Both the position numbers and the translations under genes were made by a program. This document shows positions 54,397 through 58,817 of a stretch of DNA of 64,000 nucleotides, in pieces (the stretch's first letter is position 1; each line of letters begins with the position of its first letter). This DNA is from Candidatus Spongiisociaceae bacterium. GTDB lineage: Bacteria; Actinomycetota; Acidimicrobiia; Spongiisociales; Spongiisociaceae. The stretch covers positions 3,584,001-3,648,000 of the forward strand of contig OZ253564.1 in the NCBI GenBank assembly GCA_965262915.1. The letters are read 5' to 3'. The notes under the pieces are model-generated. The model was not told the DNA's origin. It searched no databases and saw only the letters and a program-made list of their open reading frames with translations.

Positions 54397-54422
54397 CCCT
54401 GCGCGAAAACACTCATACTTAT

Positions 54423-54543
54423 AGGGTTTCCGGTTGGGGCCGGGTCTGACTCACGCGAAAACTGGCCTTTGGTGCCTTTCCCACGATCTGTCGACCTGGC
54501 CCCGGCTAGGAACCCTGAACCGGGGAGCGGGGTGACTTGATAG
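54423..54543 (+). ncRNA. Bridge RNA of outer IS110, 5' part (target-binding loop and start of donor-binding loop)
   Basis: Stem 54423-54446/54493-54516 encloses CGCGAAAAC (= left flank 54402-54410) and CCCACGAT (reverse complement of right junction 57359-57366). Confidence 0.8.
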
Positions 54544-54563
54544 ACACCCCAGGAGCGTAAATG

Positions 54564-55784
54564 TCAAGCTGCGGCTCGGTCGAGCATGGTTCGGTGTGCC
54601 CAGGCGGTGTGTTCGTCGTAGGGGGTTCGGTGTTTGAGGCAGCCGTGGAGGATGCCGACGAGCCGGTTGGCGAGGGCTCGTAGTGCTTGGTGGTGGAGGT
54701 CGCCGGCTGCTTTTCGTTGGTCGTAGAAGGCTCGCGCTCCTGGACTGTTGTTGAGGGAACAGAATGCCCATTGGTCCAAAGCGTTGGGGAGTCGCCGGTT
54801 GCGGACCTGGCGGGCAACGACGGCGTGTTTGCGGCCTGATGCGATGGTGATGGGCGACGTGCCGGCGTAGTTTCTGCGAGACTTGGCGCTGGTGTAGCGG
54901 TCGGGGTCATCCCCGAACTCACCGAGCGCCCGGGCGCCGAGCACGGTACCGAGTCCTGGCTGGGAGTGGTAGATGACGGCGTCCGGGTGTTCTTCAAAAT
55001 GGGCCTCGAGGGTTTCTTCGAGGTCGGCGATCTGGCGGTTGGTTTCCGCGATGATCTTGACCAGCGAAGCAACGATCGTCCCGAAGGCGTCCGCGACCGG
55101 CCCGGGTGCGGTGAGGTGGGCACCTCTGAGGCCTTTCTGTATGCGGCGGGCAACCTTGTCGAGGTTGCGTTTCCGTCCGCCTCTCTGTACCGCTGCTCTG
55201 ATCTGGGGAAGTGTCAGGCGGGCGCCCCGGGTGGGGGTGGGTGCCCGACCGAGTATGGCTAGGGCGTCGCGATGGGCCAGGTCATCGAACGTTTCCAGGG
55301 CTGCAGGGTAGTACTCGCGCAGCGCGTTGCGCATCTGGTTGGTGTGGCGGGTCCGCGCCCAGATCAGGTTCTGATGGGCACGGGCCATGATCTTGATGCC
55401 GTCCGCGTCTGGGCTGTCCCCGGCTACCGGACGGTGGTTGTGACGGTCGGTTCGTACCAGATCGGCTAACACCTTGGCGTCTCCTCGGTCTGATTTGGCT
55501 CCACCCTGGCGGTGACGGTCCCGGTAACGGGAAACTGCCATCGGGTTGATCGCATACACCTGATAACCCGCCCCGACCAGAGCACCGACCCACAGACCAC
55601 GGTCGGTCTCGATCCCTACCACCACCTCGGCCGCATCCGATGCGTGTTTGGCGACCATCTCGTGCAAGCGGGCCACACCCGCCAGGCCCTCCGGTAGACG
55701 GGAGAACCCCAGGCGGGCTCCCTCCTCGTCCAGCAGATACACATCGTGATGTCCCTCAGCCCAGTCGTTACCCACAAAGATCAT
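54564..55784 (-). CDS. IS110 DEDD recombinase/transposase (inner)
   Basis: VGNDWAE (D), GIET (E), KSDRGDA (DD), TSPITIASG catalytic Ser. Confidence 0.95.
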   Translation of the reverse strand: MIFVGNDWAEGHHDVYLLDEEGARLGFSRLPEGLAGVARLHEMVAKHASDAAEVVVGIETDRGLWVGALVGAGYQVYAINPMAVSRYRDRHRQGGAKSDRGDAKVLADLVRTDRHNHRPVAGDSPDADGIKIMARAHQNLIWARTRHTNQMRNALREYYPAALETFDDLAHRDALAILGRAPTPTRGARLTLPQIRAAVQRGGRKRNLDKVARRIQKGLRGAHLTAPGPVADAFGTIVASLVKIIAETNRQIADLEETLEAHFEEHPDAVIYHSQPGLGTVLGARALGEFGDDPDRYTSAKSRRNYAGTSPITIASGRKHAVVARQVRNRRLPNALDQWAFCSLNNSPGARAFYDQRKAAGDLHHQALRALANRLVGILHGCLKHRTPYDEHTAWAHRTMLDRAAA

Positions 55785-55809
55785 CCTTCGCCCCTTCCTT
55801 GCGCGGGTC

Positions 55810-56015
55810 CACTCTCTGCTGAGCTGTGGAGAACGCCTGGCGGCGACCTAATGGATCAGTGCTCTGTGGCACGCCACCCCCTCAGCGCTACAAGCGGCCC
55901 TCACTCACCGGCCGGGGCACGATCTATCAGCAGGAATCAACGTTCCAGGAGCCTGGAGTACTCACCGGCCAGCCAGCTCAACCACCACACCCTCCCAGAA
56001 ACACCGGCAGAAGTG
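55810..56015 (-). ncRNA. Bridge RNA of inner IS110 (boundaries approximate)
   Basis: Minus-strand guides AGGCTCCT (55954-55947), TGATAG (55929-55924), GGGGTGGC (55880-55873), CCATTAG (55854-55848) match the target flanks and element ends; each guide pair is separated by a small hairpin. Confidence 0.82.
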
Positions 56016-56030
56016 GTGGACCCCCATTAG

Positions 56031-56095
56031 GAGCCTTCGACTTTTGCACCGTGAGTGTTCTGTCCGCCGCTCTGCCCGGCTCCGGGGGTTGGATT
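56031..56095 (+). ncRNA. Bridge RNA of outer IS110, 3' part (rest of donor-binding loop)
   Basis: GAGC completes ATAGGAGC (= right end 57351-57358); TGAGTGTT (56052-56059) is the reverse complement of left junction 54408-54415; 56067-56079 pairs with 54520-54530. Confidence 0.78.
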
Positions 56096-56121
56096 CTAGG
56101 CAGCCGACGAAAGGCGAGCAC

Positions 56122-57354
56122 ATGGCGGAGCAAGTTAGGGCCGATGGGGTAGGTGTGGTTGGCGGGGTGGACACACATCGGGATTTCCACGTTGGGGCGG
56201 TGGTGGATGGCGCGGGTCGCCTGTTGGGATCCGCCCAGTTCGGCGCTGATACCTCCGGTTATGCCCAACTGGTCGCCTGGATGGAGTCGTGGGGTCGGAT
56301 CACACGGGTCGGGGTGGAAGGAACGGGCAGCTACGGCGCTGGGCTCACACGTCATCTCACCGAGGCGGGTATCGGTGTGGTGGAGGTGAACCGTCCCAAC
56401 CGCCAGCTTCGCCGGCGGCGGGGCAAGGATGACACCACCGACGCTGAGGCAGCAGCCCGGGCTGCTCTCAACGGTGAAGCGACCGCCCTACCCAAGACGG
56501 GCGACGGACCGGTAGAAGCCACCAGGATGCTGCGGGTAGTTCGCCGCTCCGCGGTCAAAGCCCGCACCCAGGCCGCCAACCAGCTGCACGCTCTGGTAGT
56601 AACCGCTCCTGAGCCGCTCAAACACCAACTCCGGGATCTCCCGACCCGGACACAGGTCAAGGTCTGTGCCCGCTTCCGTCCAGCCACAGCGCAGACCACT
56701 GCGGCATACGCCAAGCGGGCACTGCGGCTTCTAGCCCGCCGATACCAGAATCTAGACACCGAGATCACACAGGTCGACAAACAGATCCGCGGTCTCTGCG
56801 CACGGGCCAACCCTGCGTTGCTGGCCGCCTACGGAGTAGGACCCGACACCGCCGCTGCTCTGCTGGTCGCTGCTGGTGACAACCCACGACGTATGAACTC
56901 AGAAGCAGCCTTCGCGGCCCTCTGCGCCCTCAGCCCCGTAGCCGCATCATCGGGACCGATAGTGCGGCACCGTCTCAACCGAGGCGGCAACCGCCAAGCA
57001 AACAACGCGCTATGGCGGATCGCTACCAACCGAATGCGCACCGACGCTGCCACCAAAGAATATGTCACCAGACGCGAAGCGGAAGGAAAAACCCACACCG
57101 AAATAATCCGCTGCCTGAAACGCCACATCACCCGCGAGATATACCACCTCCTCACCGACCCGCCCCCAACACCCCACGGAACCGACCTACGCCACCGCCG
57201 AACCCAAGCCCGAATCACCCTCACCCGCGCCGCCCACCACCTCGACACACAGCCCACCGTCCTATCACAACTCGAACGAGGCCTCCACCACAACCACCAC
57301 CTCGCTACCCGATACCAACACTGGCTCACCCAACAACCGATTTGCAAAACATAG
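56122..57354 (+). CDS. IS110 DEDD recombinase (outer) with C-terminal XRE-like HTH
   Basis: GGVDTH, GVEGTGSYG, KDDTTDA, PVAASSG, RLNRGGNRQAN; tail LRHRRTQARITLTRAAHHLDTQPTVLSQLERG. Confidence 0.93.
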   Translation: MAEQVRADGVGVVGGVDTHRDFHVGAVVDGAGRLLGSAQFGADTSGYAQLVAWMESWGRITRVGVEGTGSYGAGLTRHLTEAGIGVVEVNRPNRQLRRRRGKDDTTDAEAAARAALNGEATALPKTGDGPVEATRMLRVVRRSAVKARTQAANQLHALVVTAPEPLKHQLRDLPTRTQVKVCARFRPATAQTTAAYAKRALRLLARRYQNLDTEITQVDKQIRGLCARANPALLAAYGVGPDTAAALLVAAGDNPRRMNSEAAFAALCALSPVAASSGPIVRHRLNRGGNRQANNALWRIATNRMRTDAATKEYVTRREAEGKTHTEIIRCLKRHITREIYHLLTDPPPTPHGTDLRHRRTQARITLTRAAHHLDTQPTVLSQLERGLHHNHHLATRYQHWLTQQPICKT

Positions 57355-57450
57355 GAGCATCGTGGGTTGGGTGGGGTGAAATCCTTGGAATGGGGGTGAG
57401 GCCTCGCTGGAATCGGTGAAGTAGCAACTCGCCGATGCCAGGAGGCCTCG

Positions 57451-58649
57451 ATGTCTGATGTTATGTCTGTTCGCCTGCACCTGTCGGGTGTTCGGGTGCT
57501 GGGGGTACTGGTCGAACTCTGTTGACCGCCTCGAGGTCGAAGTTGAATCGACCCGGGGGTGGTCGAGGTGTCCCCATTGCGGGTTTCCGCTGCTATCGGG
57601 GTGTGGGACAGGAGGGCGAAGCGGGTTCGTGACTTGGGCGTGAGCGGCCGTCGCACGACGCTGGTGTGGCGACGCCGCCGGTTCTGCTGTGACAACTGCG
57701 GGGAAGCGGCATCTCGAGGACCACGACCAGTTCAGAGCCGGCCTCATCCGCCGCCTCGCCCATCGCTTAGTCCAAGACGCGAGGGTGATGTCGATTAGGG
57801 CAGCGTCCCGCCATCATGGGGTGGGGTGGCATCGGATCATGGGCCTGGTGAGGGCCGAGTCGGCTCGGGTGGCGGATCGTCGCCGGGCCCGGCTCTGTCG
57901 GGTGCTGTTGGTGGACGAGACATCGATCCGCCATCGGCACCGGTATGTGACCGTGGTTGCCTGGTGGTGATTCCGGCGAGGTGTTGGCGATGATCCCGGG
58001 CCGTACGAAAGCATCCCTCACCAGGTTCTTCAGGGATCAAGGAGCCTGGTGGTGCCGGCAGGTGGAGATAGTCGTCTCCGACGGGTCCCGCTCATATCAG
58101 GCAGCCATCGCGCAGTATCTGCCCGACGCTCTCCACGTGTTGGACCGTTTTCATGTGGCTAGATGGTTCACCGAAGGACTCACCCTCGTGCGGCGAGAGA
58201 TACAACGCCGCCCCCCGGAGCAGCGGCCCCCAACATACGAACCGGACCTGTTCCGAGCCCGCTTCACCCTCCTGCACCTGGCGGATCATCTCAACGACGC
58301 CCACCAGGTGCACCTCGACCGGCTGTTCGACGCTCATCCCCGTCTCCGAACCGCGTGGGACGCGCTCCAAGAGCTCTACCAGCTGTATGAGGCCGACGAC
58401 CGCGACCAGGCCAACGAGGCGCTGGGACGGTTCGCTGACCTCTATGCCACAGGCCAGATCCCCGGATACCTCGACATCGTGGACACCATCATCGCCTGGG
58501 GAGAAGAAATACTGGCCTACCACCCCAGCAGACGGGCATCCAACGGACCCCTCGAAGGGATCAACAACCTCCTCCAGGTCCTACGACGAGTCGCTCACGG
58601 GTTCACTAACTACGACAACTACGCAGCCAGAGGAGTTCTCGTAACATGA
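57451..58649 (+). pseudogene. ISL3 transposase, multiply frameshifted
   Basis: CPHCG and RRRFCCDNCG zinc finger, LVDETS, VVSDG, LDRFHV, SNGPLEGINN..RRVAHGFTN spread over several frames. Confidence 0.85.
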
Positions 58650-58817
58650 CTCCCACACCGACAACAGCGCCCGAAACCCACGAAATCGCGCAGCCTCACC
58701 TACTTACTGACCGGGGGCGCCTTGTGTTGGGTCTCGTCCGATTCGGTGCCGGCTATGGTGGACTATTGTCGGGTTCGGAGGAGCGAGACGGCCGGGTCCG
58801 CCGGCACGACAGACGAG

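Follow-up and report, generated by a model that had tools for sequence, protein, structure and literature searches.

An IS110 element lodged in the donor-guide sequence of a second IS110, probably placed there by its own bridge RNA

In a window of 64,000 nucleotides from a Candidatus Spongiisociaceae genome (GCA_965262915.1, contig OZ253564.1, positions 3,584,001-3,648,000; five-digit coordinates refer to the window, longer ones to the 5.05 Mb genome that was searched), three insertion sequences (ISs) lie nested in one another: a broken ISL3 element (about 54399-58693), an IS110 element in its left inverted repeat (the outer IS110, 54411-57359) and another IS110, on the minus strand, in the 5′ leader of the first (the inner IS110, 54542-56030). 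The inner IS110 was very probably placed by its own bridge RNA in the donor-guide DNA of the outer one, a distantly related IS110. In the mechanism we propose, guides in the inner leader (AGGCTC+CT and the reverse complement of CT+ATCA) would match both sides of a CT core, the site reading TGAT-AG-GAGCCT on the plus strand, and the recombinase would join the circular element to this site, leaving one core copy at each junction. The 8 nt guide that is hit would have to equal the outer element's own right end, and the outer element would itself have been guided earlier into the ISL3 left inverted repeat. The nest is a case of layered parasitism, from ISL3 to IS110 to IS110, in IS-rich sponge symbionts. 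A preliminary description of the region had spoken of a three-layer RNA-guided nest; three layers there are, but ISL3 has a DDE transposase and is not RNA-guided, which leaves two RNA-guided layers of the three.

That description had also proposed that removing the inner element restores a contiguous sequence within the donor-binding loop of the outer leader, and uninterrupted outer copies bear this out. Two such copies in the same genome (541943-543404 and 546193-544732) match both halves of the interrupted element, there separated only by AG, and both contain the contiguous ...GTGACTTGAT-AG-GAGCCTTCG... of the reconstruction. The left part of the window copy (54411-54541, +), which holds the left end, the target-binding loop and the 5′ side of the donor loop as far as the first two bases of the left donor guide, matches them at 100%. 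The inner insertion splits an 8-mer of the outer leader after its second base, the TGAT half of the inner target (54538-54541, +) ending in the first two bases of the outer left donor guide and the remainder of that guide following at 56031-56034. As claimed earlier, the restored 8-mer is identical to the outer right end, where ATAGGAGC is found at 57351-57358, and this identity of left donor guide and right end extends to 11 of 11 aligned outer leaders. Nine of these leaders carry ATAGGAGC unchanged, whilst the other two (O8a and O8b) read GTAGGAGC, an A-to-G change at the first position of the 8-mer that is mirrored in their right ends. An adjoining block, 15-25 bases past the 8-mer (TGAGTG, 56052-56057, in the window copy), is complementary to the left end, pairing with its first five bases in all 11 leaders and with the sixth in nine. 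The outer leader thereby has both marks of a donor loop, a left guide equal to the right end and a right guide complementary to the core plus the left end. The sequences framing these donor-guide blocks resemble those framing the target guides of the same leaders. In a further genome (G401), the 8-mer lies about 97-103 nt upstream of the start codon in five elements, and an unbiased search for the longest substring shared between leader and post-stop sequence returned the left donor guide in all five close outer-like elements. The outer left donor guide has a single mismatch just before the core, which fits the tolerance of mismatch at left-donor position 7 reported for IS621 in the available part of PMC11208160. 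Taken together, these comparisons of sequence support the identification of the insertion site with the outer element's left donor guide.

The site is also specific. Four of the 12 inner target bases fall outside the 8 nt outer guide, and base composition predicts 0.36 occurrences of the full 12-mer TGATAGGAGCCT. Two empty sites are present in the 5.05 Mb, both in intact leaders of the outer subfamily O1; the preliminary description would have been refuted by intact outer copies without the contiguous sequence, and these have it. All three copies of the inner element with the guides of the window copy (type A) restore a perfect 12-mer, and the genome has 22 sites with one mismatch, 12 of them in outer-like leaders, and 234 with two. 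The earlier view that the host cannot easily mutate this target holds for the eight guide bases but not for the four flanking target bases, which vary among outer subfamilies.

The inner element is well delimited by its other copies. Its own genome has 11 full-length copies, ten aligned over positions 1-1489 and one over 6-1489, whose flanks diverge exactly at the boundaries corresponding to 54542-56030; AG on the plus strand, CT on the element's strand, stands at both junctions in all 11 (54542-54543 and 56029-56030 in the window), in agreement with the ends and CT core first described. The three type A copies (the window copy, 4420449-4421937 and 287300-288788) are 99-100% identical, seven type B copies are 85-87% identical to type A and all lie within 8-bp tandem repeat arrays, and a single type C copy (C1, about 290123-291611) is 84% identical. 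The intact recombinase gene (54564-55784, −, 406 aa) encodes an N-terminal DEDD domain (PF01548, 4.3e-35; DEDD_Tnp_IS110, RuvC-like) and a C-terminal Tnp_20 domain (PF02371, 5.4e-9; Transposase_20), which, with a 246-nt leader, a 22-nt tail, a 2-nt core at both junctions and ends that lack terminal inverted repeats, places the element in the IS110 group. The inner and outer recombinases share 25% identity across 125 aa and therefore represent two distant IS110 lineages.

The guides of the inner element vary in step with its flanks. The left target guide AGGCTCCT (55947-55954, −) matches its own flank at eight of eight positions and the right target guide TGATAG (55924-55929, −) at six of six. 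In the alignment of the 11 inner leaders only two short blocks differ systematically among subtypes, both in step with the flanks; they are these two guides, the first spelling the core preceded by the six bases to its left, and the second, as reverse complement, the core with the four bases that follow it. The left-guide block differs among types B, C, A′, D and E together with their flanks. Across 26 elements from this genome and its relatives (one locus being listed twice), the left-guide block matched its own flank at 8/8 positions in nine, 7/8 in five, 6/8 in nine, 5/8 in two and 4/8 in one, and the right-guide block, in 25 of these, at 6/6 in 22, 5/6 in one and 4/6 in two. Five right-guide variants (TGATAG, TGCCAG, TGTCAG, TGCTAG and ACATAG) occur in the genome, each fitting its own flank, and within type B alone there are three, each adjoining a matching flank. 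The hairpin between the two guides is conserved, with one two-sided change in a single element (L031). The inner leader has, then, a target-binding loop with two guides that match the flanks, core included, and the covariation agrees with the earlier suggestion that the insertion was guided rather than random. By these matches at least six different targets are specified within the inner family, three of them within a single genome, and for types A, A′ and C the target is another IS110. Candidate donor guides of the inner element lie at 55848-55870 (−), where GGGGTG (55865-55870) matches the right end and CCATTAG (55848-55854) is complementary to the core plus the left end; matches of 6-7 nt and 7 nt respectively are present in eight of 11 copies, and in the other three the second block is present as a different allele, at odds with their own left end.

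Insertion at this site has recurred. Within its own genome, type A occupies members of O1 (twice) and of O6e (once), outer subfamilies with ~70% identity between them, which on the sequences makes at least two separate insertion events. The closest relatives of the inner recombinase (83-86% identity) are in sponge-associated Acidimicrobiia assemblies. In one of these, G403, an outer-like leader houses an entire type A element that shares 89% identity with the window copy and whose 8-nt right-guide block agrees with the flank at 8/8; G402 has the same locus with a truncated inner copy. Copies with the same guides are therefore found in outer-type leaders in three of three cases in this genome and in both relatives, rather than mostly in non-IS DNA, the outcome that the preliminary description had named as telling against it. 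A variant, A′, in G401 has the left guide AAGCTCCT, changed at one base, and the adjoining host site reads GAGCTT, changed at the corresponding base. Two A′ copies lie there in inverted orientation, 4.8 kb apart, one adjoining the right half of a host site and the outer gene, the other the left half of an outer leader, and the remaining flanks of both are unrelated DNA. We infer an inversion between the two copies, one having come from a donor-guide site and one from a partially matching non-IS site. Type C guides (ATGCTCCT and ACATAG) spell the 12-mer of the outer right end. One clean type C copy occupies an outer-type right end in G401, the decayed C1 lies in the right end of O6e, which also bears type A in its leader, and a 214-nt type C leader fragment is present at 4018494. 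Judged by these guides and flanks, both locations of the 8-mer, leader guide and right end, are used by differently programmed relatives.

Smaller traces of the inner family were also seen. A metagenome scan returned three stretches; in two of them (L138, 454-472, and L140, 328-346) 21 nt of the inner left end survive at the donor-guide site; the third (L139) was rejected as a chance match in AT-rich DNA. In G401 a short palindromic left-end fragment lies inside or beside an outer-like leader (L108), and in G402 15 nt of the inner right end stand next to TTGAT in the leader of a more distant IS110 (L153). The O6e element just mentioned (in the stretch 286900-291900, gene intact, 409 aa) has been struck twice, by type A in the donor guide and by the decayed type C in the right end; this type C copy bears six additional bases at the right end of its own, a repeat of the left half of the target, which produce an 8-bp direct repeat. 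A tree of 24 inner elements does not resolve the backbone, so types A, A′ and C may have one origin or several, and any of them may be the oldest.

The outer IS110 shows the same logic one level further out. Its extent, 54411-57359, was set by comparison with empty ISL3 left ends, and the limits of 54397 and 58695 given at first roughly mark the ends of ISL3. Its right part (56031-57359, +) holds the remainder of the donor guides, an intact recombinase gene (56122-57354, +, 410 aa; PF01548, 1.5e-23, and PF02371, 3.8e-17) and the right end (57351-57361, +), composed of the 8-mer, in which the stop codon TAG lies, an A and a TC core (57360-57361). The gene of the other interrupted O1 copy is frameshifted. 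The left end starts ACTCATA; AC (54409-54410) flanks the left junction, which in this family retains the first core base of the target (A, C or T), and the right junction is always TC. Among 31 outer-like tails, 29 have TAGGAGCA followed by TC (O5g is without it, and O7 and O8a are one right end listed twice). The left target guide (54454-54462, +) equals the ISL3 repeat tip plus core, and the right target guide (54480-54485, +), read in reverse complement, gives the core C followed by GTGGG from the ISL3 repeat. Seven outer subfamilies have different 9-nt and 6-nt blocks at these fixed leader positions, equal in each case to their own flanks. Recombinase domains, 5′ leader and flank-matching target guides all assign the element to the IS110 group.

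ISL3, the outermost layer, is represented by the outer tip of its left inverted repeat (54399-54410, +, including the AC core at the outer left junction) and by a remainder (57362-58693, +) comprising the inner part of the left repeat, a transposase in at least three frames and the right repeat. At ISL3 left ends that stand uninterrupted in other parts of the genome, ...tgcgcg(g/a)aaa runs directly into CGTGGGTTGGG, and other ISL3 copies are 83-86% identical. Its DDE domain (PF01610, 1.3e-50; DDE_Tnp_ISL3) and zinc ribbon (PF14690, 4e-6) fall on separate downstream open-reading frames, so the transposase gene is broken; both domains and the terminal inverted repeats belong to the ISL3 family. 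No flanking direct repeat was seen when one was sought in the window around about 54399 and 58693. Throughout the genome the outer family preys on ISL3 (e.g. at 4997572, 2009343 and 4438367). O1 inserts at the tip of the left repeat, O8b/c about 24 bp further in, O2 directly after the ISL3 transposase stop, and O5/O6 in the 3′ end of a second ISL3-type transposase; two identical O1 copies, inverted, stand at both ends of a single ISL3 (541943-546193).

Several observations weigh against guided insertion into the donor guide, or narrow it. The covariation of outer guide and right end comes from a single position, changed in two sequences. At 14 sites the two interrupted O1 copies agree with each other against the two intact, mutually identical copies, and the interrupted pair may therefore be one insertion copied as a composite; events are in any case fewer than copies, G402 and G403 sharing one locus. 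One of the two A′ copies of G401 appears to have begun in non-IS DNA with a partial match only. The junction pattern was seen in none of 400 other genomes sampled from the class, a sample that held only five members of the same family, all assemblies of 2.3-2.8 Mb, and many small assemblies in which repeats may be unassembled. A consensus fold of the 11 outer leaders (RNAalifold) speaks for the target loop, which it recovered with the guides unpaired between a basal stem and a hairpin and with four of 29 predicted pairs changed on both sides, but it did not recover the donor-loop structure. Single-sequence folds were weak for the outer leader (z = −2.09, 3/200 shuffles as good) and weaker for the inner one (z = −0.67, 50/200). 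An Rfam search gave no matching bridge-RNA family, its sole matches being Ms_AS-4 and a sub-threshold Actino-ugpB. One RNA run yielded five small contigs covering the inner gene only (54818-55572, depth 1-4). The four public runs consist of short contigs broken at repeats and are uninformative on expression or excision; a joint 54540->56028 in run X1 could stem from intact outer copies.

Weighed against these points, placement by the inner bridge RNA remains the best account of where the element sits. A chance nest or an assembly artefact might be suspected, the genome being one metagenome-type contig with many IS copies and the short-read contigs of public runs breaking at these repeats, but three copies with clean junctions, empty sites elsewhere in the same genome, the same arrangement in independently assembled genomes and a 12-mer expected only 0.36 times make this scarcely credible. 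That a single old insertion was copied as a composite or inherited, with no recurrent targeting, would suit the sister O1 copies with their 14 common sites and the locus that G402 and G403 share down to the further insertion in the outer gene. It is nonetheless improbable, as copy A3 differs from the window copy at 13 of 1489 bases yet sits in a host subfamily ~70% identical to O1, the G403 and window copies share 89% identity and the G401 variant has another guide and another host sequence; together these three need at least four separate events. Nor does it seem at all likely that the outer right end is the true target and the leader hits are off-target, by way of the common 8-mer. Type C does sit in outer-type right ends (C1, the 214-nt fragment and the clean G401 copy), and IS621 can use half-matching sites (10.64898/2026.08.31.748434, available in part), but the type A guides fit the leader site at 12/12 positions and would mismatch the right-end 12-mer at three of 12, all three type A copies of this genome and that of G402/G403 are at leader sites, and six perfect right-end 12-mers in the genome are unoccupied.

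A separate question is whether the hit on the donor guide is antagonistic. The same mechanism could operate with no antagonism, the outer leader being an abundant, harmless, conserved repeat and the donor-guide hit incidental, and we regard this as quite plausible, if short of probable. Inner relatives target 8-bp tandem repeats (the seven type B copies) and repeat-like flanks (type E), ISL3 elements are in turn hit by the outer family at several sites, and repeats and transposon ends are known targets of IS110/IS1111 elements (PMC11208160 and PMC11187229, both available in part). It sits less easily with two inner types aiming at both places that bear the same 8-mer, with a guide that changed along with a variant host site in G401, or with G402 and G403 (loci L112 and L113), where the only close (~70%) outer-like copy found is the one that type A has entered, its gene being broken again by a 1.3-kb insertion; these arguments carry no measure of fitness. 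The alternative, which we put forward tentatively and consider rather doubtful, is an IS110 lineage specialised on the donor-recognition module of another IS110, the right end and its obligatory mirror in the leader, in a guide-against-guide arms race. If so, the outer family would vary the target bases flanking the 8-mer (TG/TA/TT upstream, CC/CT downstream) to escape, the inner lineage would retarget in response (AGGCTC to AAGCTC, leader to right-end site or the reverse), and the insertion would be a reversible off-switch for the outer element. On this reading it is also conceivable that the inner left guide, complementary to the guide region of the outer RNA, interferes at the RNA level.

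Guided placement in the donor guide would have consequences for the outer element, with or without antagonism. Both bridge RNAs are presumably made; the split leader would yield no working outer bridge RNA, the outer gene would also be separated from its upstream leader, and excision of the inner element would be expected to restore the site. Two side observations concern the inner element itself. In the presumed inner donor loop (about 55848-55880, −) two small blocks each have two alleles, reshuffled among near-identical copies (A1, A2 and A3 each differ), which could reflect gene conversion or another donor specificity. The type B arrays (e.g. at 371390-372875 and 1359845-1361329) have two repeat variants, and the right guides match the variant that flanks them. 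The Rfam match to Ms_AS-4 (86.9 bits, E 3.7e-13; 54882-54963, +) falls within the inner recombinase gene, antisense to it, and this family may represent a conserved stretch of IS110-type transposase genes rather than a small RNA in its own right.

The nest would provide an example from nature of a bridge RNA programmed to target the bridge-RNA gene of another element. The required identity of donor guide and end creates a second, attackable copy of an otherwise unique recognition sequence. One genome moreover pairs reprogrammed guides with the natural targets of each (at least three inner and seven outer specificities), which is useful for working out how guides operate in two IS110 lineages far removed from IS621, and the arrangement suggests a simple off/on switch for a bridge recombinase system. 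It is thus relevant both to bridge recombinases and to insertion sequence ecology. Our literature search found no description of an IS110 directed at the guide DNA of another IS110, with the supplementary natural-target lists of PMC11208160 and PMC11187229, which may hold IS110-on-IS110 cases, lying outside it, and no pairing of hyperparasitism with IS110 or bridge RNA.

Compared with known systems, both elements resemble IS621 and the IS110 group (PMC11208160, as far as its available text goes) in their DEDD and Tnp_20 recombinase and long 5′ leader, the inner also in its CT core, and in two loops (the donor loop of the inner element being a candidate) whose left guide equals the top strand and whose right guide is complementary to it, with the core in both, the outer also in a mismatch adjoining the core in its left donor guide. 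In IS621 the left guide pairs with the bottom strand and the right guide with the top strand, and the inner arrangement is the same. The differences are that the inner target is DNA encoding the donor guide of another IS110 and not a genomic repeat, that the outer element uses an NC core whose first base differs between junctions, and that the present elements are known from sequence alone. Retargeting has been described for the seekRNAs of ISEc11 and ISXne4, close relatives that differ mainly in two target-matching blocks and sit in correspondingly different sites (available part of PMC11187229); here at least six specificities occur in one family and three in one genome, with A, A′ and C aimed at another IS110. 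A preprint on tandem IS110 loci (10.64898/2026.08.14.744561) reports local expansion, a lack of target immunity and half-matched donor arms, and the accumulation of IS110s at or next to occupied IS110 loci is common to both cases; growth there is beside a conserved site and by tandem duplication, and in the available part no second lineage guided into donor-guide sequence is described. A precedent for hitting the functional end of a mobile element is IS4321/IS5075, aimed at the repeats of Tn21 (cited in PMC11187229, available in part): a DEDD-type IS at the end of another element, directly parallel to the outer IS110 in ISL3 and to type C in the outer right end. In that case, however, the victim is the end of a DDE transposon, whereas here one victim site is the RNA-guide gene of an element that is itself RNA-guided, and the same 8-mer offers two alternative places to strike.

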